This document shows positions 1 through 23,544 of a stretch of 24,140 bases of DNA, piece after piece. The stretch comes from a virus: positions 1 to 24,140 of the IMG/VR virus record IMGVR_UViG_3300035454_001408. One strand, given 5' to 3'. The notes below the pieces were generated by a model, which was given only the letters and a program-made list of their open reading frames with translations, had not been told where the DNA came from and did no database searches. Numbering within the stretch: the stretch's first letter is position 1; every line of letters begins with the position of its first letter. The translations under genes and the position numbers were made by a program.

Positions 1-15
1 TATTGTTGTTTTCAT
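1..15 (-). CDS. Possible 5' start of a gene running off the left edge (MKTTI...)
   Basis: ATG at 15, 32 nt downstream of the first base of a TATA box, the same geometry as the lipoprotein gene. Only 5 codons are visible. Confidence 0.3.
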
Positions 16-39
16 ATTATTATATATTGTTATATGTAA

Positions 40-54
40 TATATAAGTTTTATG
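40..54 (-). promoter_or_regulatory. Archaeal BRE+TATA promoter (CATAAAA-CTTATATA), probably leaderless
   Basis: Purine-rich BRE-like CATAAAA followed by a TTATATA box in an AT-rich region downstream of the late-operon terminator. It matches the 10154-10168 promoter in BRE and spacing. Confidence 0.55.
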
Positions 55-4172: not shown

Positions 4173-5528
4173 CTATACTTCGTATTTTACTTCCGACCAG
4201 TTCCATTGAGTGATATAGTCGTCAGTAGATGTGGTGGTTATTACTTCCCGCAGTCCATCGAATTTGTCCAATCCACTGTATCCTAAACGGCTGATTCCCT
4301 TAGCATTCAATGGCACTGCGTTGGTTGTTGTGGGGTAGTCGCCGTAACGGTTGTGGGTTAAATCTGTGTAGGTCATGTCTCGCCAATTTGTGGGGGTGGT
4401 GTATTGGATGTAAAGGTCATCATCTGCGGGTGTGGCTGAGGGGATGGTTGTCACGTTATAACTGCTACTGCCTGCCTGTGTGCTGATAGCGAAGTTGTCA
4501 AATGTTGGTTCAACTGCATTGTAACTTCCCCAATTACTTGCAAACATCCCCACATGAGTTGGGACGAACCCAAGACTATTGGTACTATACAAATATGACC
4601 ATCCAGTACCAGTGGTACTGTAATAAAAATAGTATGTTCCATTGATGTATGCGATTAAGAAGTGCATAGGTAGAGTGGTGCTGGTTACTGTTGCCACACC
4701 CCCTGTGTATACATTGTTAACTATTTTGTTAAGCTGGAACCGGTTTGTTGATGCCCCATCGTCCCTCCTTCGACCAATCATCCAAACGTTGTCACGGTTT
4801 TTATATAACATTGCCCCTGCTACTGTCTGGTTGTTTACGGTGTAACTGTTCATTGTTACACTGGCAACCCAATCCCCACTACTTGGGATAGGGGTGTAAG
4901 CTATTGGGGCGTTGTGTGTTGCTGCATCCCATAATCCATTAACTCCCCCACTTACAGATATATTAAGAGTTGTGGTTTCTCCAACACTTCCAGCGGGGGT
5001 TGATACTGTCCAGTTGGCACCGATACTGGCATCGTTGAAGTTATCTGTGAAATGGTAACGGTGGGTTAGTGTTAATGTTTCATAGTTGCTGTAACGGACT
5101 GGGAGGTTCACTCTTAACTTCCCCGCATTTCCAGTACCTGTTTCTACGGTTAGGGGGGCTGTGCATGCACTTTGTGTGAGGTCAAACCCCACCACCTCAG
5201 TGGTTCCAGGGCTGGTGGCTGTGGTGAATAATTGTTCCCCAACCAGTTCTTCCCCTCCATTGTTTAAACCGTAGAGTTGGAGTAGTGTTTCGTATTCAAC
5301 CGGACTGGCTTCGGTGTACCGGTATAATTCGTTTTTCCAGCTTGTCCATAGAACGTTGCGTGATTCTAGGGGGAAATGGGTTTTTATAGTAGTTCCTTCC
5401 ACGACGGTGGGGGAGGCCATCATTGGTGTAAAGAGTAGGTTATCTCCATCGCTTGCCACGTACCCTGTTGGGGTTGTGGAAGGGTCTGCCATGTCACTAC
5501 CAGTATACTTGTATGTTCGTGTAACCAT
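4173..5528 (-). CDS. Tail-tip protein with central ConA-like lectin/glycoside-hydrolase-associated beta-sandwich, 451 aa
   Basis: FTDNFNDASIGANW...QTVAGAML...YFYYSTTGTGW...HVGMFASNW...PTFDNF is a ConA-like pattern. It follows the hub gene; AGGAG RBS. Confidence 0.6.
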   Translation of the reverse strand: MVTRTYKYTGSDMADPSTTPTGYVASDGDNLLFTPMMASPTVVEGTTIKTHFPLESRNVLWTSWKNELYRYTEASPVEYETLLQLYGLNNGGEELVGEQLFTTATSPGTTEVVGFDLTQSACTAPLTVETGTGNAGKLRVNLPVRYSNYETLTLTHRYHFTDNFNDASIGANWTVSTPAGSVGETTTLNISVSGGVNGLWDAATHNAPIAYTPIPSSGDWVASVTMNSYTVNNQTVAGAMLYKNRDNVWMIGRRRDDGASTNRFQLNKIVNNVYTGGVATVTSTTLPMHFLIAYINGTYYFYYSTTGTGWSYLYSTNSLGFVPTHVGMFASNWGSYNAVEPTFDNFAISTQAGSSSYNVTTIPSATPADDDLYIQYTTPTNWRDMTYTDLTHNRYGDYPTTTNAVPLNAKGISRLGYSGLDKFDGLREVITTTSTDDYITQWNWSEVKYEV

Positions 5529-5542
5529 CCTTTTTCCACTCC

Positions 5543-7780
5543 TTATAATGGGCTGAATGCTCCGTATCCTGCTATTCCGAGTCGTTCACTGCTAACGTTA
5601 CGGTAGATTGTTTGTGCGTTACGTGTTCCAAGGTTTTTAAGGTCGCTGCGTGTGCTTCTTATCCAGTTACGGAACCGGCTGCTGCTTCGACCAAAATCAA
5701 CCTTTGTGGTGTATTTTGGGCTGCTGTCCTGATCATAATTGTGGGTGATTGTTTTAACTTGGTAATCTCCTACAATCCTCCGTCTTGGTAAGTTAACGTT
5801 ACAATATTGTAGTGGGAGTAATCCCCCATCTCCAAGAATGTTAAGGGTGAATCCGAGGCGGGGGTGTTTGTTGTTTTCCACCCAGTTCTTTGCTTCGAGT
5901 GTTGCATCATTATTGTTGTCTAAGTCATCCATGAACTCATGAACTTGTACGAGGCGGTAATGGTCTTGTATGTCGAAGTCTTGGTAAGTTACGTTGCGGT
6001 AATTGTTGTTTGCATCATTGTAGGTTATGTGGCGGTTGTTTCCAAAGTCCTCATTGGGTGGGTCGTATTCAAAGCCGTCGAAGGTTATGAGGTTGTTTCC
6101 TTCGTCAATTACGGTGGTGCTGGTTGTCCATAATTCTGGCATTACAACTAAGGAGTCTTCACTACGACTATCACCGTATTCCACGTAGGCTGCATGGTTT
6201 GTTCTTTCACACAATTGTTGTATTTCCTCAAATATTGTTTTAACATCTTGTGATGCGTATTTACTAGCGTGGTTGATTTCTTTGTAGGCTCCAATGTTGT
6301 CTATCCACACCCCACTGCTATACCTGCTACCTGTTTCTGTTTTGGTTACTGTGCCGGTTAGTTCTATTTTACTCACGTAATAGTTAGTTGTCCGTGAGGG
6401 GTTGAGATAATTGTTTAATAAGTTTTTGAGGTTTATCTGGAAGCGTTGGAACTCCCCATTTTTAACCACTCTCACATTTCCAATAGTTCGGCTGTCTGTG
6501 CCCCCGGTGAAATGGACATTGTATACTACTGCATTGTTTATTGTTTCTCCAGTCTTATGGACTGTGAAGTGCACGTTGAATTTGAGCGGGTTTCGTGCTG
6601 TGCTGCCCCCAAAATAGTAGTCCATAGTAAACCGGTCATAAGTCATGGCATCATAAGGATTACTGGGATCGTAGTAAAGTATAGCGGTTGCAGATCCGAT
6701 GTTTTTGTCTACGTAGAGTTTCATTGATGGTTTGGGGTTGCCATGTTGTGTGTCTAAATCTTTACCCCACGTTGTGACTGGTATAGCATTGTAAGTTCCA
6801 CTGTCCCCCATGTTTTTGTAGAATGCGTAGTCGTGGGGTACGTTGAATGCAGGAATGGGGTAGTCTGCTACTGTGGAGAGGTATCTGGTTAATTCATATA
6901 CACTGCTGAAAGGTGTGAATGGTTCGTTGTTGCTGTCGCTCCCTGTGCCTCCTGCTATGCTGAAATTTTGGAATATACATTGCCGTTCTAAGTCGTAAAG
7001 TGTGTCTAATCCTTCGATGGTCAATGTTTCATCGTCACCATTATATCCTGTTAAGTATCCTCCGTAGACTGCACGGGTGTTGTTTGCTTTATTCCCCAGC
7101 CAGATGGTGATTGGGTCGTCGAAGTGGAATTTTAGTATGCTGTTCCCATAATCATAATCAGCATAATACTTTTCACCCATCACCATGTCCATGCTGAGTT
7201 TGTTTAACTCCGTTACGCTGTTTTGGGTGAACTCTAAGTTGGTGAAATCCAGCCGTTGTCTGCTTTTATACTTGTTTGCCCGATTGTCCCCTTCAAAACG
7301 GGTTATTGGGGTTATCACAAATTTACCAACATATCCACTTTTAGTCATGCTGATTTTGAAGGTGTGAGAACCTTGAGTATAATATCGTGGTTTGTATTCC
7401 ACCCAACTAGTATGAGGCCAAGGACTGTTCAGTGTGTTATAGTCTTCTATGGCTGTTGTGCCATCGTATAATTGGAAGCCTCCGGTGTATCTTGGGTTTT
7501 GGTAGGTGGATATGTTGATAATATAGTACCCATCATAAGGGAGAGTTATTGTTTTGGTTAAATCCCCACTGGTATTAGTATTTTGAAGGTCAAGGCCAAC
7601 CCATCGTCGGCCATCTTTAAAGTGGTTGTAATTGTTGAATGTGACACTCCGTGTCCACGTGTCCAACCAGTAGCTTTTAATGTTTTCATGGTCTTTTACG
7701 TCCACCCTTACTTTGAGATAAGGATCATCAACTATCCGTAAAGAGGGATGGATTTTTGTGGGGATGTTGGTTTCTGCCAT
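5543..7780 (-). CDS. Baseplate hub (Tal/gp27-like) with two inserted CBM-like domains, 745 aa
   Basis: Hub-like segments (VYGGYLTGYNGDDETLTIEGLDTLYDL; GDYQVKTITHNY...TTKVDFG) are interrupted by beta-sandwiches ending GSHTFKISM and VWIDNIGAY. Second gene after the TMP. Confidence 0.6.
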   Translation of the reverse strand: MAETNIPTKIHPSLRIVDDPYLKVRVDVKDHENIKSYWLDTWTRSVTFNNYNHFKDGRRWVGLDLQNTNTSGDLTKTITLPYDGYYIINISTYQNPRYTGGFQLYDGTTAIEDYNTLNSPWPHTSWVEYKPRYYTQGSHTFKISMTKSGYVGKFVITPITRFEGDNRANKYKSRQRLDFTNLEFTQNSVTELNKLSMDMVMGEKYYADYDYGNSILKFHFDDPITIWLGNKANNTRAVYGGYLTGYNGDDETLTIEGLDTLYDLERQCIFQNFSIAGGTGSDSNNEPFTPFSSVYELTRYLSTVADYPIPAFNVPHDYAFYKNMGDSGTYNAIPVTTWGKDLDTQHGNPKPSMKLYVDKNIGSATAILYYDPSNPYDAMTYDRFTMDYYFGGSTARNPLKFNVHFTVHKTGETINNAVVYNVHFTGGTDSRTIGNVRVVKNGEFQRFQINLKNLLNNYLNPSRTTNYYVSKIELTGTVTKTETGSRYSSGVWIDNIGAYKEINHASKYASQDVKTIFEEIQQLCERTNHAAYVEYGDSRSEDSLVVMPELWTTSTTVIDEGNNLITFDGFEYDPPNEDFGNNRHITYNDANNNYRNVTYQDFDIQDHYRLVQVHEFMDDLDNNNDATLEAKNWVENNKHPRLGFTLNILGDGGLLPLQYCNVNLPRRRIVGDYQVKTITHNYDQDSSPKYTTKVDFGRSSSRFRNWIRSTRSDLKNLGTRNAQTIYRNVSSERLGIAGYGAFSPL

Positions 7781-7781
7781 C

Positions 7782-10142
7782 CTATATTCTCCTAATGTTT
7801 GTACGGAGGTCTGGTTGTGTTAGGAACTCATTACCAATAAATGAGTAATAATTATAGGATGTAGGGGGTTGCATTTGGTCATAAACCCCTATCCCGGTGA
7901 TTTCACTAGCAGGAATACTGTCTGATTTGATTGTTGTGGGGTCTTGTTTCATTATCATCATCCCATATTGTGCAGTAGAAGTAGGGGGCATACTCCACAA
8001 ATTGCTCCCAATTGATGGGATTGGGGCTATTTGGGTATTGTCCACATAAAAGGTGGTGCTTGTCTTTGTTTTTGTTAATATTTGAAGGTCTACTTTGGCG
8101 GTTTCATTTGATGATATTGTGAAATCTGCATCATACCAGGCCCATTCTCCTGTACCCCAAACGAGGGTAATATTAGGACTCCATGTGCTTTGTATTAATG
8201 AATTGTCAGCTCTCCTTTCTGATAAGTAGAGCCCAACGGTGGTGCTGCCTCTTAAAAATGACCCAACATTTAATATTAGTCCTGCGAGTCCTGTTGTGCC
8301 AAACTCGGAGCGTTGGGCTTGAACAACCCCCTCATAATTTATTAAATTACTTGTATCTACTTTTAAACAGTACCCAGTTCCACCATACCCCCCACCTGTT
8401 TGTGAGAGTACCGATGAAACCGGATTCCACCCTGATGTATCAGTTTCAATGTTATAAGCATTCAAAGTGAGTAGGTTGTGAGGGCGATACATGAGGGCAT
8501 AGGCTTGTGTGAGCATTGACACATCAGCCCCAGCGGCTAAACCATTCTGGTTCACACCATCATGGTAACAGCTAGTACCCTTGGTGTAACTTAAAACATC
8601 ATTTGGATGTTCAACGTAAACAAAGGGTTTACCTCGGTTAAGTTCCCATAACGTAGTATTTATTTGGTATATCTGTTTTTCTGGACCAAGACTAATTGGT
8701 TTTAAAAGATTAATCTTTTCACCATCTAAACCAAAACTATTAAGAACAGCCCATCCATTTGTTGGATCATAATAACTGAAAACAATAGGAGTGGTAGAGC
8801 TTGCATTGGTAGTTAGTTTAACTAATCCGTTGGTTACATAGAAATCTGCTGGGTCTAATGTTTCATCTGTCCATGTTATAAGTCGGGGAGTGGAATCTGT
8901 GTAACTACTGTTATATCCCTTAACTGCCCCCTTGTAAAGTTGTGATGCGTCTTCTTGGTAGAAATAGAGGTCTTCTGATGGGTTAACATAACATGGGATA
9001 GTGCCATCACTACTTGTCCGGGTGAAATCTGGGGTAACTAGTGGTGTGGTGGCAGGGAGGGCTACAATATTGTTAGATACTGCGTCTTCCATATTATAGA
9101 CTTTTAGGAACTCTGATTCTATAGTGGCACTTGTACTATCCCAATTTGCAAACTGGAAGGTGTATTTAACATTCCAGCTTTCACTAATCCATGTTACCCC
9201 ATGATATTTTTTAACATACCCACTGCCAGTGTCCACATAGATAGTGAGGTATCCTATTGGGTCAGTTACCATTTTCCAGTTAATGCTCTTGGCTGATGTA
9301 GCAGTAGGGGGAATTATAACTCCTATTGAACCAGAAGCGTTGAAAAGGTAAGCAGCATAGTTTGGTTGGCTATTGTCAACGTTTAAAACCACAAGTACGG
9401 TGTTATTATATGGGTTGGCCGATGATGCGGTCACCGTACGTGGTCCGAAGAAAAAGTTAAGAGCGTTCTTGTAGCCAGTGGGGGTGGAAGCATATTTCAT
9501 GTTTAATTCTAAAGTCCACGGCTTGTTAAAAGTACCAACACTTTGAGTTACTACTTGTCCTGCTGTACCATCCACTTTACCTTGGCATGTGAAGTTCAAA
9601 TCACCATCAGCAGTTATACTAGGCGAGGCGGTTGCACTGCTGTAACTCATTGCTGACCATATACTGCTACTGAAAGTAGAGAATGTGTCATTTAAGAGGT
9701 AGTCTTCGGTTTCAAGAAGGTAACTGTGTTCAATGCGTGTTCCGTCATTCACCCCCGGAGTGTAGGTTTGTTCGAGGTATTCGGTTTCGTTGGAACTGAT
9801 TTTCTGAGCGGTTACTTGCAAATGGACGTATTCTGCTCCGAGGTCTGTTGTGGGTTCTGCATCAATGATTATGTACCATCCTCGGTGTAATATGTCTTCA
9901 TTGTCCCGGAGGGTGTTGCTGGTGTCTATCCATACTACTCCCCAAGGGTTGTCGCCGGTGGTGATGTTTAATGGGCCACTATGTTCTGTGTTGGTGTTGT
10001 TGTGTCTTAGTCCAAGTATTTGTCGTGCTTCTATGTTTGGGACTATGATTGTGAAGCTTTCCTCGCCTTGGGTGGTGAGGGAGTTGTCGTCGTATAAGTG
10101 TGCACGTGGTATTTCGATTGGGCCTATTCTTCCTTCGCTCAT
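7782..10142 (-). CDS. Distal-tail/baseplate protein with lectin- and CBM-like domains (evolved Dit-like), 786 aa
   Basis: First tail gene after the TMP; GGTGA RBS; ConA-like segment and a CBM4/9-like segment (NIETDTSGWNP...YCLKVDT...FYVDNTQI). Confidence 0.55.
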   Translation of the reverse strand: MSEGRIGPIEIPRAHLYDDNSLTTQGEESFTIIVPNIEARQILGLRHNNTNTEHSGPLNITTGDNPWGVVWIDTSNTLRDNEDILHRGWYIIIDAEPTTDLGAEYVHLQVTAQKISSNETEYLEQTYTPGVNDGTRIEHSYLLETEDYLLNDTFSTFSSSIWSAMSYSSATASPSITADGDLNFTCQGKVDGTAGQVVTQSVGTFNKPWTLELNMKYASTPTGYKNALNFFFGPRTVTASSANPYNNTVLVVLNVDNSQPNYAAYLFNASGSIGVIIPPTATSAKSINWKMVTDPIGYLTIYVDTGSGYVKKYHGVTWISESWNVKYTFQFANWDSTSATIESEFLKVYNMEDAVSNNIVALPATTPLVTPDFTRTSSDGTIPCYVNPSEDLYFYQEDASQLYKGAVKGYNSSYTDSTPRLITWTDETLDPADFYVTNGLVKLTTNASSTTPIVFSYYDPTNGWAVLNSFGLDGEKINLLKPISLGPEKQIYQINTTLWELNRGKPFVYVEHPNDVLSYTKGTSCYHDGVNQNGLAAGADVSMLTQAYALMYRPHNLLTLNAYNIETDTSGWNPVSSVLSQTGGGYGGTGYCLKVDTSNLINYEGVVQAQRSEFGTTGLAGLILNVGSFLRGSTTVGLYLSERRADNSLIQSTWSPNITLVWGTGEWAWYDADFTISSNETAKVDLQILTKTKTSTTFYVDNTQIAPIPSIGSNLWSMPPTSTAQYGMMIMKQDPTTIKSDSIPASEITGIGVYDQMQPPTSYNYYSFIGNEFLTQPDLRTNIRRI

Positions 10143-10153
10143 GTTTTTATCAC

Positions 10154-10168
10154 CATAAAATTTAATAA
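10154..10168 (+). promoter_or_regulatory. BRE+TATA promoter of the lipoprotein gene (CATAAAA-TTTAATAA), leaderless geometry
   Basis: The TATA box starts 32 nt before ATG 10193, and there is no RBS before the ATG. Confidence 0.6.
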
Positions 10169-10192
10169 CAAGTTGTTAGTGTAATATTAATT

Positions 10193-10615
10193 ATGAAAAA
10201 AGAAATATTGATTATAGAGGTTATGTTACTGGGAATTGTGGCCATATCCGGATGCACGAGTAGTGGAGTGACAGATAAAGCATATAATGGGAGTTATATG
10301 TCTTTTCAGTATCCAGAAGAGTTTAAAGTGGCTGAAGCGAATGCGGGGCGTACTGTTGCAGTAGTAGGGAATGGGAATATCCTCATCAACCAATATAGTA
10401 ACATAGAGAATCAAAAAATGTTCGTTAACGATTTAGGAGTTAAGGAAAATATCACTAACCATTCTGATCCATTCAACTACACCACAGGGTTGACTAATAT
10501 GGAGGATGAAGCAATGTATTTCACCCGTGAGGGGAAATATTATGTTATCACTTATCCCCCTGCTTTAAGGGATAAAGTTGTTGGTTTGGCTAGGAGTATT
10601 CGGAACAATCAGTAA
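10193..10615 (+). CDS. Lipoprotein moron (ISGC lipobox, PsbP/DcrB-like fold suspected), 140 aa
   Basis: MKK + hydrophobic core + ISG-C21; the SFQYPEEF motif is typical of PsbP-related proteins. Only + strand gene; its stop overlaps the TMP stop by 7 nt. Confidence 0.8.
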   Translation: MKKEILIIEVMLLGIVAISGCTSSGVTDKAYNGSYMSFQYPEEFKVAEANAGRTVAVVGNGNILINQYSNIENQKMFVNDLGVKENITNHSDPFNYTTGLTNMEDEAMYFTREGKYYVITYPPALRDKVVGLARSIRNNQ

Positions 10616-13506
10616 TTCTTAACTATTTGGTCGTTTGCCTTAGCAACATCTTTTTTAAATTCTTTCCAATTGTATACTGGGGCATTGAATATGTATGTAT
10701 TTCCCCCATTGCCTCCACTGGGGCCTCTTGGGGGTGCCCTCCAACTTCCTGTTAGGGCATGGTTAGCTATGTCCCGGTCTTGTCCTCCTATACGTGCATA
10801 GACGTGGGGGTTTCCCATCCATGTGCTTTGTATTAGTTCTGCCGGTATTCCCCACGCATTGGCTAAGGCTATCTGGGCTAGGCTTCCATCTACACAGTTC
10901 CCTGCGAAATTAGATAAGGTTTGACTGATACTTTGTCCTATTCCTCCATAAGGGAGGTAGGTGAACCCACTTGCCATGTTTAAGAAGGATTTAGTGCCTT
11001 TTAATGGTGGGCCAAAGGCTAAACCTCCCCCACCGCCACTTCCTCTTCCTGGAACAGATGGCCCTCCACTTTGAATGAATTGTCCAACAATGGGGAGGCT
11101 GGCTACAAAGTTCACTACACTTCTCCATGCCCCTTTTATGCGTTCCATTGCCCCACTCGCCCAGTCTAATAATCTGGCAACCAATGGGTTTCCAGTAACA
11201 GCCCAGACTGCTGCGTTCCACCGAGTCATAACATAATTAACGGCATAATCCCACATAATCCGGAGGAAATTAACTGTGTTATTCCATGCCCCTTGTATCC
11301 ACGCTCCTGCTGCTGAGAACCCGCTGCTTATCCAATTCAACCCGTTTTGGAACCATAAAACAGTATTGTTCCATGCTCCTTGGAAAAAGGCAACGGTGTT
11401 CCCCCATGCTCCTTGAACGTAATCCCCAAAATCTTTAAATTTAGCTCTTGCACCAAATATGAACTCCCTGAATGCCAAATCAGCTTGTAAAAATCCACTT
11501 TCAACGGCAAAATATATCATATTCCCAATATTGCCTTCATCCATTGCCAATTGGAAGTTTTCGCTGCTCTTGGCAAAGGAATCATAGGTTTGTTTATATG
11601 ATTCAAAGTCCTTTCCAGCCTCTTTCCATGCTTTAGAATAATTGTCTGTTCCTTTAGTAATTTTATCCAGCGTTCCTGCCTGACGGTCATAAACACTACT
11701 AATTTTATTTCCCAACTCAGCGGTTTTCATTAATTCATCATTATACTCTGCCGTGGTGCCTTTTTGTTTCACATATTCTTCGGGTGTGATTCCTTCTTTT
11801 GCAGCGGCAGCCCTTGTTTTGGATGAGGATATTTTGCCTTGTTCAAGCCCTTCTAAATCCGCCCTCATTCTCTGGGCGTTAGTCCACGCATCTTCTGCAT
11901 TCTTAGCATTAATAGTGTTTGTCTCTACTCGTTTACGTGCATCTGCTATTTGTCTATCAATCTCAACGGTGCTTCTACCCGCAGCGACTTCCCTTGCCCG
12001 TGCATTGGTTAAACTTTGAATACTTTTGTTAAGACTTTCATTCTGACTTTTTAAACCACCAACAACCTCATTTTTCTCTTTCTCTGCGTTATTCCATGCA
12101 ATGGTGGCACTCTGGGTTTGGCTAATGTAATATGCTAAGCCTACGAGGGCAGCAACCATTATCCCTACCCCTGCGGCTGCGGCTATCATTCTTTTATTTA
12201 GTCCTCCGAGGGTGTCCCCCCATGATATTGATGATGTTTTAGCCCCGTTTGCTGCGGTTTTATATTTAAGTGTTCCTCCAGCGAGTTCTAAAATTTTACC
12301 CGCAGCATGACTGGCCCCACTACCAATAGTAACCAGTGTGGGCCAGAAGAACCCTAGAATAGTGGCTAGTCCAGTGAATGCAATAATGGCTCCACTAATT
12401 TGTGGGCCTAATCCTTCAAAGATAGCAGTTAAACCGTTCACTAAGGCTTCCATTCCAGGCATTAATGCTTCACCCGCAGCAATACCAGCGAGTTGTATTT
12501 TTTCTTTAAGGTTTTCAAACCGGTCAGCGAGACTGGTTACTTTACTACCGTACCCTGCAATCCCTTTATCTTCATATAACTTTTGAAGAGCAGCAAAGAA
12601 GGTTTCGGGTTTAGACTTATCAAAACCACGGTCATACAATTCCTGCATGTCGCTGATACCAATCTCTTTCATACGTTTGATACCATCACTACCTCCTGCC
12701 ATTGCATCTTCAATAGCACGACCAGCATCCTCCGCACTTCTTCCGTTGGCTTTGAATAATCCAATTGTATCCCCTAGTGTGCTGTTATATTGTATCATCT
12801 GGTCAGCAGACATTTTATGAGATAATCTGACTAATCTCCATGCACTTAGCATCTCTGGCTGTGATACTTTACTTGCACTCTCTGCATATTTAGCGGTAGC
12901 CACGTCTAAGCGTTCAACCTCAGCAACTCCCATACCTACAAATTTAAATAGGCTTTTGGCTTCTTCAACTGCCATTGCTGCCCCTACGGTAAACTGGTAG
13001 AATGCTGCCCCGACTAATGCACCCATCCATACATTAAAAGAAACCACACTGTTGGTTAATGAGGCGAGACTATTCCCGGCAGCCATTATCCCACTACCAA
13101 CCTTACCAAAAGCAGCACTACCAACACTACCCACGGAGGACAGTGCACTGCTTATCCTTGAAGTAGTGGTAGCCACAGGGGTGATAGCAGTCTTATAAGC
13201 ATTACCCATAGTAGTGAATGAAGAACTGGCAGTACTGATGGCCTTATTCATCCCAGATAACTGGTTTACTGTGCCTCCAATGGCCTTACCCATATAGGTG
13301 GCTTGGGTTGTTGCTCCTTTGACGCTGTTAGTGTAAGTTTGAACACTTTTAGCAGCATTGTTCATTCCCCGTGTGACGGCTTGGCTCCCTGTTGCCATTC
13401 CCTTAGTGGCACTCTGAGCGGATGCCATTGCCGCTTGCATCTGTTTCTGGAATTGAGATGCGTTAAGAATCAGTTGTGCTTCAATCGTGCCGGCGTTTGA
13501 TACCAT
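10609..13506 (-). CDS. Tape measure protein with C-terminal transglutaminase-like Cys-His-Asp domain, 965 aa
   Basis: TMP N-terminus (AGTIEAQLILNASQF), Ala/Gly-rich helical body, tape_meas-like core and 11-aa Trp repeats; GNCVD/PHVY/DRD motifs near the C-terminus. Start moved to ATG 13506 (GGAGA RBS). Confidence 0.92.
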   Translation of the reverse strand: MVSNAGTIEAQLILNASQFQKQMQAAMASAQSATKGMATGSQAVTRGMNNAAKSVQTYTNSVKGATTQATYMGKAIGGTVNQLSGMNKAISTASSSFTTMGNAYKTAITPVATTTSRISSALSSVGSVGSAAFGKVGSGIMAAGNSLASLTNSVVSFNVWMGALVGAAFYQFTVGAAMAVEEAKSLFKFVGMGVAEVERLDVATAKYAESASKVSQPEMLSAWRLVRLSHKMSADQMIQYNSTLGDTIGLFKANGRSAEDAGRAIEDAMAGGSDGIKRMKEIGISDMQELYDRGFDKSKPETFFAALQKLYEDKGIAGYGSKVTSLADRFENLKEKIQLAGIAAGEALMPGMEALVNGLTAIFEGLGPQISGAIIAFTGLATILGFFWPTLVTIGSGASHAAGKILELAGGTLKYKTAANGAKTSSISWGDTLGGLNKRMIAAAAGVGIMVAALVGLAYYISQTQSATIAWNNAEKEKNEVVGGLKSQNESLNKSIQSLTNARAREVAAGRSTVEIDRQIADARKRVETNTINAKNAEDAWTNAQRMRADLEGLEQGKISSSKTRAAAAKEGITPEEYVKQKGTTAEYNDELMKTAELGNKISSVYDRQAGTLDKITKGTDNYSKAWKEAGKDFESYKQTYDSFAKSSENFQLAMDEGNIGNMIYFAVESGFLQADLAFREFIFGARAKFKDFGDYVQGAWGNTVAFFQGAWNNTVLWFQNGLNWISSGFSAAGAWIQGAWNNTVNFLRIMWDYAVNYVMTRWNAAVWAVTGNPLVARLLDWASGAMERIKGAWRSVVNFVASLPIVGQFIQSGGPSVPGRGSGGGGGLAFGPPLKGTKSFLNMASGFTYLPYGGIGQSISQTLSNFAGNCVDGSLAQIALANAWGIPAELIQSTWMGNPHVYARIGGQDRDIANHALTGSWRAPPRGPSGGNGGNTYIFNAPVYNWKEFKKDVAKANDQIVKNY
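11200..11427 (-). repeat. 11-residue (33-nt) Trp-periodic TMP repeats
   Basis: QGAWGNTV, QGAWNNTV and QGAWNNTV with DNA CAAGGAGCATGG / CAAGGAGCATGG / CAAGGGGCATGG; aromatic residues recur about every 11 aa. Confidence 0.8.
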
Positions 13507-13943: not shown

Positions 13944-14542
13944 TCATCCAACTCCCATACTCTTTAACCGACTTTCCTGCCTAGCCTTCAACTTTGCTTT
14001 AACTTTAAGCTTCTCATCCTCATCCTTATCCATTTGTGCCATAATATCTAGGTTTCTCATGTGCATTGCCACATGGAGATATGGCATTTTCCATACAGTG
14101 TCTTCTTGCCAGTGGAAACGGTCACATAGACTGGTAACGGCGAATGATGGGCCTACCCCATACTTATCCGGCTTTACTTTCCCTTACCATCCTCACTTGT
14201 ACCATACTGGTCTTCCATTTGGTCTGCGAATCCTTCTGATACGAACTCTACTATGCTCATGAGTTGTGGGATTGTTAGGATGTTCTGGTTAAGGTCGGGT
14301 ATTATCCTTTTGATTATTTCACGCATCTGGGTGACTTGGCTCATCTTTTCTTCTTTAATGTCTTCCCCTGTGATGTCTTCAAAGTTTCCTAATGAGTCGA
14401 ATAGGATTGGCATTAATACGAAGTCTTCATAGGCTGGTTGGAATACTTTGTACTTGTTTCCACCTACTTTAACATCTCCGATACTGAGGTTTAGTGCGTC
14501 TAGGTCTAATAGTCGGTTTCTTTTCTTTTTAGCGTTTACCAT
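13944..14542 (-). CDS. Tail assembly chaperone, -1 frameshifted long form (gpGT-like), 199 aa
   Basis: After G GGA AAG the -1 frame stays open for 77 codons (VKPDKYGVGPSFAVTSLCDRFHWQEDTVWKMPYLHVAMHM...SMGVG) to TGA at 13944-13946. It has no independent RBS/start and is absent from the ORF track. Confidence 0.85.
14174..14542 (-). CDS. Tail assembly chaperone (gpG-like), 122 aa
   Basis: Follows the tail tube gene; GGAGG RBS; ends in the slippery heptamer. Confidence 0.85.
   Translation of the reverse strand: MVNAKKKRNRLLDLDALNLSIGDVKVGGNKYKVFQPAYEDFVLMPILFDSLGNFEDITGEDIKEEKMSQVTQMREIIKRIIPDLNQNILTIPQLMSIVEFVSEGFADQMEDQYGTSEDGKGK
14177..14183 (-). other. -1 programmed frameshift heptamer GGGAAAG
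   Basis: Correct X XXY YYZ phasing, identical to the lambda G-T heptamer, directly before the TAA stop. Confidence 0.88.
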
Positions 14543-14616: not shown

Positions 14617-15603
14617 TTAGCTTATGTCGGCCAAGTTACTGGTTATAACTGCACTGGCAGTCTTAGAATCACTGGCACTGTAAACAGCAGTGAAGGCTAT
14701 ACTACTCTGCACGGCTTCGTCACCTTTAAATGGCAATGGAACATCATCCAAATACACTTTAGGCAACGTCAAAACCAGATTCTGATACTTGTCAGCAGTT
14801 CCAGGGAGTAATGCCCCCGTCCAAGTGAATACTAAGGCTTTTTCAACCGGACTGTCATCAAAGGTGTTAGTATCTCCCATGAAGTCTTCGTAGTAACTCC
14901 AGTCCTCAAAGAATACGTCCATTGAACCGGTGCATGCGAAGTATGGGGTGTGTTGTAGTCCGTAGTTTAATCCATGCCCTGCTGTGTAGAATGCTTCTGT
15001 GGCTCTGTCGATGTTTATACTGGCGTTTAAGATGTTGTTGGCAGTGGTTCCACCATAGGTGATTGAGAAGTTGGAGAAGTTGAATGCCTTATTTGTAGTG
15101 TAGGATGGGGTTAGTGCGGTTTGGGATTTATCCATCATGTAACTGAACCCGTCCACGCTGACTTCGAGTTTTTCCTTGTTTTTGGCTTCCAGTTTGAGTG
15201 ATTTGAAAACCACGTCACTGTATCGTTTGTAGTTAAGGTTTCGTATCCCGTTGGCTAGGGTGAATATTGGTAATGTGCTTGACTGTGAATAGGTGTAACC
15301 ATACGCAGGGGTGCTGCTGTATGTGGTTGCTGTGTATGAGCCGAACACTCCGTAGAATGCGTGTTCTAATCCTCCGGCAGGGTATGCAGGGAAGGTTATA
15401 CTACCTTCTGTGGTTACTGATGGTGTGATAGGGGCGTGGTTTTTATCGGTGTTGGCCCTGTGTTCTGTTTCATAACTCCGGTCTGGTTTACTGTTCCAGT
15501 CTAAGTCGGTGTATGGTATGTAAACGTCTGGGGCAACGGGGGTTCCTGGACTGGCTTGTACGCTGATTGCCGCATAAGATTCACGTCCACTGTATAATCC
15601 CAT
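14617..15603 (-). CDS. Major tail tube protein (siphovirus type), 328 aa
   Basis: Position after the terminator; pattern SGRESY...PGT...TEGSITF...FTL...FKSLKL...ASINIDR...TGSMDVFFE...LTLPKV. No sheath gene is present. Confidence 0.85.
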   Translation of the reverse strand: MGLYSGRESYAAISVQASPGTPVAPDVYIPYTDLDWNSKPDRSYETEHRANTDKNHAPITPSVTTEGSITFPAYPAGGLEHAFYGVFGSYTATTYSSTPAYGYTYSQSSTLPIFTLANGIRNLNYKRYSDVVFKSLKLEAKNKEKLEVSVDGFSYMMDKSQTALTPSYTTNKAFNFSNFSITYGGTTANNILNASINIDRATEAFYTAGHGLNYGLQHTPYFACTGSMDVFFEDWSYYEDFMGDTNTFDDSPVEKALVFTWTGALLPGTADKYQNLVLTLPKVYLDDVPLPFKGDEAVQSSIAFTAVYSASDSKTASAVITSNLADIS

Positions 15604-17155: not shown

Positions 17156-17191
17156 AAAAAAAGTGGGTTGTAAAGGACTATATGTGTCCTT
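17156..17191 (-). terminator. Hairpin + T7 terminator after the major capsid gene
   Basis: 6-bp stem AAGGAC-N7-GTCCTT (17173-17191) overlapping the stop, then CCCACTTTTTTT. Confidence 0.65.
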
Positions 17192-18104
17192 AGATGGCAC
17201 TGGCTTTGTAACAGAAACTGTTAGGCTTCTTAACAGCGTACAAGGTTTCGCCAATGAACTCCACGACCTCGTTGTGTGGATATTTCTGTTCCTTGTACCG
17301 GTAGACGTTAACCATCCGGAAGTTAGGTGACACACTGAATCCTTCGGGTCGGTAGGCGTAGATGTCCATTGGTTTGTAGGCAGGTCTACTATCAAAACCA
17401 AGGTAACTTCCTTCTGCAACTTCGGTACTGTTAGTTACTTCGTGGATTGAGACTCCACGGATTCTGGGTATGTCTTCTTCTCCACGTGGACTGATAGCCC
17501 AGTTACGGTCTATTCCAACCATGTACTGTTCCAGTTCAGAGTAGTTGTCTTCATGGACATAGAGGTCAGTTAATCGGGAACCATAACCTGATACTTTGAA
17601 GGCTTTTTTGAAGTTGATTATGTCCTTAATAGGGTCGGCAGTGTCTTCACTCCATGCTGGGGCTCCATCGACTTCATTTATCTCGTTGGTGGTGTTTTTG
17701 AAGGTGGTAACAATGTCGTTGTTGATTTTCTGTGCCATCACATAACCGATACGTTCGGTGGCTCTCATGAGGTCGTTCACGATTTCGGAACGTTTCATGT
17801 CTCTTTCGGATACTTTCATTTGTAAACCGAAGGGTCGTAGCATCCCTGCTTTCTGAGTTATGGGACTGATCTCGACGGTGGTTAGTTCGGATAATTCACC
17901 AAGGTCTAATGGTTCACCAGTCACTTCATTGGTCACATCTTCACCGGCGGTGGTGAGGTCTTCATGGTAGGTTACTGATACGTTGTCGGTGTAGGTGACG
18001 TTGAACATGTTAATGAAGTCCAAGTCTTCCTCCATCTGTTTGTTTACGATTCCTTCGATGAGGTTTTTTCTTAAAAACTGTTTTGGGGATAATGTTAGGG
18101 TCAT
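17190..18104 (-). CDS. Major capsid protein (HK97 fold), 304 aa
   Basis: E-loop (GELSELTTVEI), spine helix (DLMRATERIGYVMAQKINNDIV) and A-domain (WSEDTADPIKDI...LYVHEDNYSEL); AGGAG RBS. Confidence 0.9.
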   Translation of the reverse strand: MTLTLSPKQFLRKNLIEGIVNKQMEEDLDFINMFNVTYTDNVSVTYHEDLTTAGEDVTNEVTGEPLDLGELSELTTVEISPITQKAGMLRPFGLQMKVSERDMKRSEIVNDLMRATERIGYVMAQKINNDIVTTFKNTTNEINEVDGAPAWSEDTADPIKDIINFKKAFKVSGYGSRLTDLYVHEDNYSELEQYMVGIDRNWAISPRGEEDIPRIRGVSIHEVTNSTEVAEGSYLGFDSRPAYKPMDIYAYRPEGFSVSPNFRMVNVYRYKEQKYPHNEVVEFIGETLYAVKKPNSFCYKASAI

Positions 18105-22236: not shown

Positions 22237-23544
22237 TTATCCAAACATGGGTTCTTCCCATTGGATCTTACTCTGAATCTCATCATTAACAGCATACCGC
22301 AAAGCATCAGGACTGTGATCATCACGTTTAACTGGTTTTTCAATACCAAGCTTCTGAGCCTTACTATCCCAACTATAAATCTGCATCTGCTTAATACAAT
22401 CACGTGCCTTACTTTCATGAATACGGATACGGTTATCACGCAACATGTTTTGAACAGTCTTAATGCCCTCTAGTACATCGGGGTTTACTGGTGCGATACT
22501 GAAACCATCCCTCATTAGTTGGTTGTTGAAACTGGTACTGTCGTGGGGTACTACTACCCGGTTACATTGTCTGTTCCCTACAAACCTACTTAACTGTTCG
22601 GATAGTTCACTGTCAGTGTACTGTATATCAGTGGCTCCTGCATCATGGTAAAACTCATCCAATAAATCATAGCAGAGTACCCGGTCACGAGTATCTCCGC
22701 ACCAACGCCGTGCCCAGTACTGGAAGACGGCAACCGTACTAGTACCATAATCAATACTAATAAACTTGTCAATGTAATTCTTTTTAGCCTTGTTGAACGT
22801 ATGATCTTCAATATTGAACATTGGGTAGACTGCTCCTTCGGCACTAACCCATTGTCCGAGGATGTATCGTTGGTAAAACACTCCAGTGTAGGCCCTTTTA
22901 CGGCTTTCCACGTAGTCTTTGGGGAGGTATGGGTTGTCGTCCATTAGGAAGTTCCAAACCTTAAGGTCGCCTTTACGTAATAACTCTTTATTCTTCAAAT
23001 AGTCGGTGTAGAACCAGTGGTAGGGACTGTCAGGGTTGCAGGTAACAAAAACATGACTGCCATCTACACTGCAACGGCTGTATGCCATGTCGAAACCACT
23101 CTTTGGAGCAGTGGTCACCTCATCACTATATAATCCAGCTACCGTCATTCCCTGTATATCATCTGCACTACTCTCATCCTTCAATGCCACGAGGTAGATT
23201 AGTTTATCAACGTCATTGTAGGTGAACTCTAACTCTCCACCCATCATACTGTACCGTATATCTTCATCACGGAAGCCCATACTCATGAGTAACCGTTTAA
23301 GCCCACGGACCACATTACGCTTAATGGTCTTCTGAGATTTACCAGTTACTAAGAACTCATCATAAGGATGCTCCAGGATGTGCTGAAGGAAACGGAAATT
23401 AGCAACAACAGTCTTACCACTCCGTACCGCTCCAACGAGGCAGTTAATATGAGCATCGCTGTTAAACATGAAGTCTGCTTGCTTTGGCGACAACGTTTGC
23501 AGTTCCATGCCTCCAGACTTGTTCTTGCTTCTATCTCTAGCCAT
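22237..23544 (-). CDS. terL: Terminase large subunit (PBSX-like), 435 aa
   Basis: Walker A GAVRSGKT, Walker B LYSDE, coupling motif TCNP, and nuclease motifs SIDYG and DDHSPDALRY. Confidence 0.95.
   Translation of the reverse strand: MARDRSKNKSGGMELQTLSPKQADFMFNSDAHINCLVGAVRSGKTVVANFRFLQHILEHPYDEFLVTGKSQKTIKRNVVRGLKRLLMSMGFRDEDIRYSMMGGELEFTYNDVDKLIYLVALKDESSADDIQGMTVAGLYSDEVTTAPKSGFDMAYSRCSVDGSHVFVTCNPDSPYHWFYTDYLKNKELLRKGDLKVWNFLMDDNPYLPKDYVESRKRAYTGVFYQRYILGQWVSAEGAVYPMFNIEDHTFNKAKKNYIDKFISIDYGTSTVAVFQYWARRWCGDTRDRVLCYDLLDEFYHDAGATDIQYTDSELSEQLSRFVGNRQCNRVVVPHDSTSFNNQLMRDGFSIAPVNPDVLEGIKTVQNMLRDNRIRIHESKARDCIKQMQIYSWDSKAQKLGIEKPVKRDDHSPDALRYAVNDEIQSKIQWEEPMFG

Follow-up and report, generated by a model that had tools for sequence, protein, structure and literature searches.

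An antisense lipoprotein gene at the tape-measure junction of a probable Methanobacterium virus: a moron-like cassette with a possible role in superinfection exclusion

The 24,140-bp virus record IMGVR_UViG_3300035454_001408 of IMG/VR (completeness estimate 48%; the whole record is called the window below) carries a plus-strand gene for a small predicted lipoprotein (140 aa, P0001), placed backwards between the gene of the tape measure protein (TMP) and the next gene of the minus-strand tail operon. The gene is under purifying selection and a chance open reading frame (ORF) is ruled out; comparison of related tail modules indicates that the TMP junction is a hot-spot for morons and that the lipoprotein is not a part of the virion. 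By analogy with lipoproteins of bacteriophages the product may act as a superinfection-exclusion factor; this is the best guess, with a probability of about 0.4. The anatomy of the site is solid and extends beyond the window; the function is a testable guess.

Coordinates of all features are collected in Table 1; the protein begins MKKEILIIEVMLLGIVAISGC. In the preliminary description of this DNA, made from the sequence alone, the gene was placed from 10143, which is the first base of the 50-nt gap on its upstream side; the ORF itself begins at 10193. It had been called the only plus-strand gene, and it was indeed found to be the sole credible one among about 21 minus-strand structural genes: the other plus-strand ORFs of at least 60 aa overlap a longer minus-strand ORF or are of low complexity and lie in the chaperone frameshift gap. 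The stop codon had been described as overlapping that of the TMP gene; the genes do overlap, by 7 nt, and the stops are adjacent, not shared (TGA of the TMP gene at 10611..10609). Against the 67%-identical copy in the metagenome contig L002, the ratio of nonsynonymous to synonymous substitution rates (dN/dS) was 0.195; flanking structural genes gave 0.155–0.23 at the same divergence. The ORF is regarded as real because its dN/dS is like that of its flanks and because homologues exist; since both dN/dS and divergence match the flanks, the gene has travelled with this virus lineage. The guanine plus cytosine fraction of the gene is 0.39 versus 0.41–0.49 for the flanks, a small difference.

Homologues of the 786-aa distal tail protein, the product of the gene next to the TMP gene, were found in 6 of 301 Methanobacteriaceae genomes, and the TMP junctions of these loci were compared with those of the window and of L002, the one metagenome contig of the census. 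An antisense gene with a lipobox flanks the TMP gene in five of the eight related tail modules, and none is present in the other three. The five genes represent three unrelated families. At the 3' junction, between the TMP and 786-aa genes, the window and L002 have the PsbP-like lipoprotein; L037 has an unrelated one of 127 aa (lipobox VSGC) and L039 another of 141 aa (lipobox FSGC), for which all-beta leads were obtained (CARDB/DUF7490-like and GOLD/PPC-like). L040 has a member of the PsbP family (E 3e-23) antisense on the 5' side of the TMP gene; its TMP and 786-aa genes overlap at their junction. Only gaps of 0–31 nt were found in the remaining modules: the next gene follows directly in L035, after 31 nt in L036 and after 18 nt in L038. 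L035 is without the lipoprotein gene though it is among the closest relatives by the 786-aa protein. Presence at this junction, singled out for comparison in the preliminary description, is therefore variable, and universal conservation as a structural virion protein is ruled out by the absence from three of the eight modules. A scan for lipoboxes in every ORF of at least 50 aa, carried out on nine loci, gave only the TMP-flanking genes as credible hits, all of the form ..SGCT... The term moron used in that description suits the gene, which is a moron-like insertion with a predicted promoter of its own and variable presence among relatives.

The ninth locus, L006, belongs to a myovirus-type Methanobacterium provirus with an unrelated tail (tail sheath and baseplate present). 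A 30%-identical family member lies there, again antisense, between the presumed TMP gene and the next tail gene, i.e., at the 3' junction. It is part of a two-gene antisense cassette (L006:7400-8381): the family lipoprotein has a TTG start led by a Shine–Dalgarno (SD) sequence, and 17 nt later a second gene encodes a 174-aa ORF with an N-terminal transmembrane segment, a coiled coil and a weak match to 'Rz-like spanin' (E 0.0023). In ten more distant Phage_tube_2 proviral tail modules (L042–L051) only junk antisense ORFs were seen near the TMP gene; no antisense gene occurs at the TMP junction of MSTV1 (PP537965), whose ORF35, expressed in lysogeny, does not encode a lipoprotein. L039 contains a second antisense gene within its tail module (L039:5264-5581, plus strand), which encodes a Zn-ribbon membrane protein; a 35%-identical homologue of the latter (L005:9476-9817) has a family lipoprotein as its neighbour in a chromosomal region that is not viral (L005/L007). 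The arrangement suggests that these viruses sample pairs of envelope genes from their hosts.

The divergent control gap (50 nt) contains, on the minus strand, the SD sequence of the 786-aa gene (GGTGAT, complement of 10149-10154, 6 nt from the ATG) and, on the plus strand, a heptamer CATAAAA like the transcription factor B recognition element (BRE), followed by the TATA-like octamer TTTAATAA. The element covers -39..-25 of the lipoprotein ATG, with a 24-nt spacer and no SD; a core of at least 4 nt, 6–10 nt upstream, was found in 13 of the 21 minus-strand genes. In all four 3'-junction cassettes (window, L002, L037, L039) the ATG is preceded by an A-rich heptamer (-39..-33) and by a TATA-like octamer (-32..-25), again with no SD (TTTAATAC in L037, AATTAAAT in L039, both upstream of unrelated genes), so that three different proteins are encoded behind one shared promoter geometry. 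None of the 21 late genes on the minus strand has this geometry. Between L002 and the window the spacer differs at 12 of 24 bases and its length is constant. The promoter 15-mer has one match in the window, and a single match was also obtained in 33 of 100 shuffles; support for the promoter is therefore comparative, not statistical. The archaeal promoter architecture predicts a transcription start at or beside the ATG, i.e., a leaderless mRNA. The leaderless promoter that had been proposed for the gap is in line with these data: predicted BRE/TATA at -39..-25, no SD, position kept in four cassettes.

A run of six T beyond the lipoprotein stop is a candidate archaeal oligo-T terminator. It lies within the TMP coding region, antisense of Lys-Lys codons, and a T6 run is found at a comparable distance past the stop in L002. 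A second gene of the window has a CATAAAA plus TATA element at 39 nt from its ATG (15..13) and no SD (window 13-54, minus strand); this left-edge gene begins MKTTI, leaves the record at its left end and comes after a hairpin and T7 terminator that lie downstream of the Pei lysin gene. It and the lipoprotein gene may form one class of leaderless, non-late genes.

The antisense position also bears on late transcription. The 786-aa gene must be reached by minus-strand transcription that runs antisense across the lipoprotein gene, or else be served by a promoter of its own. Within the 466-nt antisense stretch from the TMP gene to the 786-aa gene, A6 runs (T6 on the minus strand) were located at 10196-10201 and 10413-10418, a T6 density of 4.3 per kb versus 0.58 per kb overall. 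These two runs may attenuate expression of the distal tail genes; minus-strand T runs are also common between other late genes, and the counts are not decisive for a splitting of the operon.

The N-terminus has the form of a lipoprotein signal peptide ending in I-S-G-C, which fits the bacterial consensus [LVI][ASTVI][GAS]C and agrees with the lipobox reported earlier; the codon of the lipobox Cys21 is 10253-10255. Across 19 family members S19, G20, C21 and T22 show little or no variation, and residues 1-33 of P0001 matched phrog_13294 'lipoprotein' (E 0.018). The mature domain was modelled with AlphaFold2 (model m5f8ffd5b9875, 13 sequences) at a predicted local distance difference test score (pLDDT) above 94 for residues 30-140. 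Exhaustive structural comparison (VIA) with 48,161 solved chains gave as top match Tsi3 in its complex with the muramidase Tse3 (4luq_C; Z 10.9, root-mean-square deviation 2.6 Å, 101 of 123 residues, sequence identity 7%); other matches: BT_1490, Z 10.2; Apa, 8.4; Mog1, 8.3 (113–115 aa); MucB C-terminal domain, 8.2; TplEi, 8.0; PsbP, 7.2–7.3; DcrB (6e8a_A), a weak match of 5.2 over 84 residues. The immunity proteins PA3488 and Smlt3025 were also among the structural matches. Foldseek gave PsbP at E 1.6e-4; among predicted viral structures (BFVD) phage lipoproteins matched best, among them one with the name 'host cell surface-exposed lipoprotein'. The earlier guess of a PsbP/DcrB-type fold is borne out by the model, by the Mog1 and PsbP matches and by PsbP_2-positive relatives; DcrB itself is weak.

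No Pfam family was matched by P0001 at E <= 0.1, so it lies below the cut-off of PsbP_2; in Pfam and PHROG together nothing matched outside the signal peptide, a sequence-profile search of the PDB gave noise only, and tblastn against 50,697 phage records gave no match. The distant family members P0012, P0020 and P0021 are above the Pfam PsbP_2 (PF18933) cut-off, and P0012 matches PsbP and DcrB as well (DcrB E 6.7e-4 for one distant relative); the viral member of L040 gave PsbP_2 at E 1.3e-4. In profile–profile alignment of the P0001 family with its PsbP_2-positive relatives only the first 49 columns were aligned (signal peptide and first strand), and the sequence link to PsbP_2 is therefore partial. 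With PF18933 PsbP_2, PF01789 PsbP and PF08786 DcrB the protein shares the fold and an N-terminal motif, a lipobox and then Y-x(4-5)-SF-x-YP. Homologues are few: a search of 5.8 billion clustered proteins gave 6, and one of 1.84 billion gave 16 representatives. P0002–P0004 are the closest, and P0002, which is encoded on a 17-kb contig, is 95% identical. All homologues are small proteins in which the lipobox is immediately followed by a Y-x-x-x-x-MSFQYP strand. In three Methanobacterium genomes 9–12 family matches each were found, mostly outside proviruses; the viral gene is therefore regarded as captured from a family of host envelope lipoproteins. P0019 (2044 aa) matches the N-terminal half of P0001 in 10 separate stretches and may be a large surface protein with this module as its repeat unit.

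The TMP itself contains a candidate target. Its C-terminal domain, with a Cys-His-Asp motif, resembles pseudomurein endoisopeptidase (Pei) and gave a weak match to Transglut_core (E 0.024; the L039 TMP, E 0.0014). The domain was recognized in seven related TMPs: it is present in the window, L002, L035, L037, L038 and L039, occurs as a tandem duplicate in L040 (L040:8208-11324), is weak in L036, and is absent from the TMP of L006.

The following explanation is proposed. The gene is a moron: in a temperate-type Methanobacterium siphovirus, a host-derived gene for a PsbP-fold lipoprotein has been inserted backwards between the TMP gene and the tail gene that follows. The BRE/TATA promoter of the insert would give a leaderless mRNA, apart from the late operon. 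Convergent late transcription would oppose the lipoprotein gene and tend to silence it; we infer for this reason that the product comes mainly from the resting provirus. The protein would be exported, anchored by a lipid at Cys21 on the outer face of the cytoplasmic membrane beneath the pseudomurein wall, and there most likely hinder related viruses as they enter; the preferred mechanism is that it engages the incoming TMP tip or the Pei-like wall-cutting domain of that protein, as with Ltp and Tsi3-type lipoproteins. Exclusion, the function proposed in the preliminary description, is favoured because the site invariably carries a gene for a small surface lipoprotein, because two unrelated tail types both have the site at the TMP gene, because replacement by unrelated genes is typical of arms-race cassettes, and because the precedents Ltp and T5 Llp fit. 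A more specific form of the proposal, a swappable lysogeny-expressed lipoprotein cassette at the TMP gene whose PsbP-fold version is a Tsi3-like immunity lipoprotein neutralising the pseudomurein-cutting domain of the incoming TMP tip, appears improbable.

Several points weigh against exclusion. The PsbP/Mog1 fold is generic, and Z values of 8–11 denote likeness of fold, not of function; most members of the lipoprotein family are chromosomal. Three unrelated lipoproteins would need to have converged on one task. Lipoprotein and Pei-like domain do not go together strictly: L035 and L038 have the domain without the lipoprotein, and L006 the lipoprotein without the domain. Leaderless mRNAs are not known to be common in Methanobacteriales. 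Metatranscriptomes (four runs) gave nine short contigs of depth 2–4 on the TMP and 786-aa genes, one of which (10060-10210) covers only 18 nt of the lipoprotein gene, and these contigs are uninformative on strand, level or absence of its transcript. The lipidation enzymes AliA/AliB (arCOG02177) are described as having 'several gaps' in Methanobacteria; they are known only from Haloferax, in a pathway of archaeal lipoprotein biogenesis that was only recently established (PMC12462473).

The main rival explanation is a lysogenic-conversion or host-fitness factor, an extra host envelope lipoprotein (ligand binding, envelope maintenance, adhesion) that aids the lysogen; it is possible, if somewhat doubtful. 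It is in accord with the mostly non-viral, envelope-gene neighbourhoods of the family in Methanobacterium chromosomes, with the nature of PsbP_2, LpqN, Apa and BT_1490-type proteins as general extracytoplasmic binding modules, with the diversity of the cargo at the TMP site and with the Zn-ribbon membrane protein of L039, the homologue of which lies beside a lipoprotein of the family in a host chromosome. A general fitness gene would, however, have no reason to be placed precisely at the TMP gene in tails of two unrelated types, and the viral copy has diverged along with the virus, at the rate of structural genes. A dedicated inhibitor (immunity protein) of the Pei-like peptidase domain of the TMP, protecting lysogens or late-infected cells, would be a sub-case of exclusion and is unlikely. 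Effector and immunity genes are typically neighbours; here the lipoprotein gene overlaps the very end of the TMP gene that encodes the Cys-His-Asp domain, and the top structural match is an inhibitor bound to its muramidase. The exceptions L035, L038 and L006 speak against such a pairing, as does the association of homologous domains in L037 and L039 with unrelated lipoproteins; an obligatory enzyme–inhibitor pairing was ruled out by this imperfect co-occurrence.

A late-acting helper (release, protection of progeny as in T5 Llp, or accessory to lysis) is very unlikely. T5 Llp does have a dual role and prevents loss of progeny on debris (PMC9586334), and the lipoprotein of L006 is followed by the ORF with the weak spanin match. 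Against this, the antisense orientation opposes co-expression with the late genes, no partner ORF of the L006 type is present in the window, and the lysin gene is 9 kb away. Pseudomurein archaea have no outer membrane on which spanins could act; a spanin role, suggested by the L006 partner ORF, was dropped on this ground. That P0001 is a virion or tail-assembly component, or a non-functional leftover ORF, is highly improbable: the position within the tail module would suit it, but the opposite strand, the export signal with lipobox and the absence from three of the eight modules, among them the close relative L035, do not, and the dN/dS value argues against a dead gene.

Among the closest known systems is Ltp of the Streptococcus thermophilus phage TP-J34, a lipoprotein expressed from the prophage that binds the TMP of the incoming phage (PMC3952083). 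Ltp consists of Ltp repeat domains (helical repeats) after a Ser-rich spacer, whereas P0001 has none and shows a PsbP-like fold; Ltp is encoded in the lysogeny module and P0001 in the tail module, antisense to the TMP gene; and the host of P0001, being archaeal, has ether lipids and other lipidation enzymes. Membership of P0001 in the Ltp family was ruled out by the missing repeat domain and the position outside the lysogeny module. T5 Llp, encoded beside the receptor-binding gene, and the T1/phi80-like Cor are small lipoproteins placed by tail or host-recognition genes that exclude their own kind (PMC9586334), a position comparable to that of P0001; they act from the periplasm on the outer-membrane receptor FhuA, whereas the host of P0001 has no outer membrane, and T5 is virulent. 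No homology to Llp or Cor was detected by PHROG (only the signal peptide matched) or by tblastn against the above phage records.

With Tsi3, TplEi, PA3488 and Smlt3025 of type VI/IV secretion P0001 shares the fold. Tsi3-type proteins are small and exported and counteract incoming enzymes that degrade wall or membrane, and their genes adjoin those of the enzymes; the P0001 gene, by contrast, is antisense to that of its putative partner, and their co-occurrence is not strict. Classical morons (lambda bor and lom; HK97-type) have their own promoter, lie between conserved late genes, vary in presence and encode a surface protein or lipoprotein (lambda Bor is a lipoprotein); the window gene resembles them in its site and variable presence, in its predicted promoter and candidate terminator, and in its predicted lipoprotein product. 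In contrast to these, the window gene is antisense and overlaps the 3' end of the TMP gene, its candidate signals are archaeal (BRE/TATA, leaderless, oligo-T), and the same TMP site is filled by three unrelated lipoprotein families.

Table 1. Positions of the lipoprotein gene, its signals and the neighbouring genes in the window
Feature	Position	Strand	Remarks
Lipoprotein gene, 140 aa (P0001)	10193-10615	+	TAA stop at 10613-10615
Signal peptide and lipobox	10193-10255	+	n-region MKKE, hydrophobic core ILIIEVMLLGIVA, I-S-G-C
Mature domain, PsbP/Mog1-like alpha/beta sandwich	10256-10612	+	well modelled for residues 30-140
Divergent control gap, 50 nt, between 786-aa tail gene (-) and lipoprotein gene (+)	10143-10192
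BRE-like CATAAAA	10154-10160	+
TATA-like octamer	10161-10168	+
Convergent 3' overlap of lipoprotein and TMP genes, 7 nt	10609-10615	both	same 7-nt overlap in L002
T6 run, candidate oligo-T terminator	10651-10656	+	36-41 nt past lipoprotein stop
TMP C-terminal domain, aa 836-970	10612-11016	-	Cys-His-Asp motif GNCVDG..PHVY..D.DIAN
TMP, 970 aa	10609-13521	-	phrog_167 and others
786-aa distal tail protein	7782-10142	-
Large distal tail proteins	5543-7780 and 4173-5528	-
Chaperone	14174-14542	-
Tail tube	14617-15603	-	PF18906
Major head protein	17190-18104	-
Terminase	22237-23544	-
Pseudomurein endoisopeptidase (lysin)	217-1254	-

All long ORFs of the window are on the minus strand, in an operon ordered head, tail, lysis. 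From the lysin and the related loci the host is a member of the Methanobacteriaceae, most likely Methanobacterium; of the two genera named in the preliminary description, Methanothermobacter and Methanobacterium, only a Methanobacterium-like host was retained. Near-identical DNA (window 8500-12500) was found in runs of 12 studies from wastewater, anaerobic digesters, biogas, groundwater, biofilm and a biocathode, which hold 40–72% of the words sampled from this segment; this lineage of viruses occurs widely in engineered anaerobic settings. GenBank phage records gave no match to the window at the DNA or protein level, and scans of IMG/VR with the lipoprotein alignment, the 786-aa protein and the tube protein gave no relatives. 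The relatives that were compared are integrated in chromosomes or long contigs, three of them with a tyrosine recombinase 20–30 kb from the tail module. In one provirus (genome G227, L037:2177-6983) the homologues of the 786-aa protein and of a 745-aa protein are split into 4–5 ORFs each, and the TMP and antisense lipoprotein ORFs are intact; this hints weakly at retention of the lipoprotein by a provirus in decay, an error in assembly of the metagenome-assembled genome being the alternative.

Morons and lipoprotein exclusion factors are already well known in bacteriophages. Full-text literature searches gave no report of a lipoprotein exclusion factor, or of a TMP-flanking antisense lipoprotein cassette, in an archaeal virus, and no mechanism is known to us by which a virus of methanogens shuts out its competitors at the surface of the cell. 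One site with three small lipoproteins of unrelated families, their predicted leaderless promoters and a neighbouring candidate target, the Pei-like TMP domain, form a set on which the proposal may be tested. A swappable exclusion cassette, if true, would be the first superinfection-exclusion system known in a methanogen virus, and its Tsi3-like version would be a viral effector–immunity pair acting between membrane and wall. If exclusion is not the function, the site still documents the capture of host envelope genes by archaeal viruses; if it is, lipoprotein-based blocks to entry would extend from bacteria to pseudomurein-walled archaea, a handle would be available on how tailed archaeal viruses cross wall and membrane, and the finding would be relevant to virus–host dynamics in anaerobic digesters.

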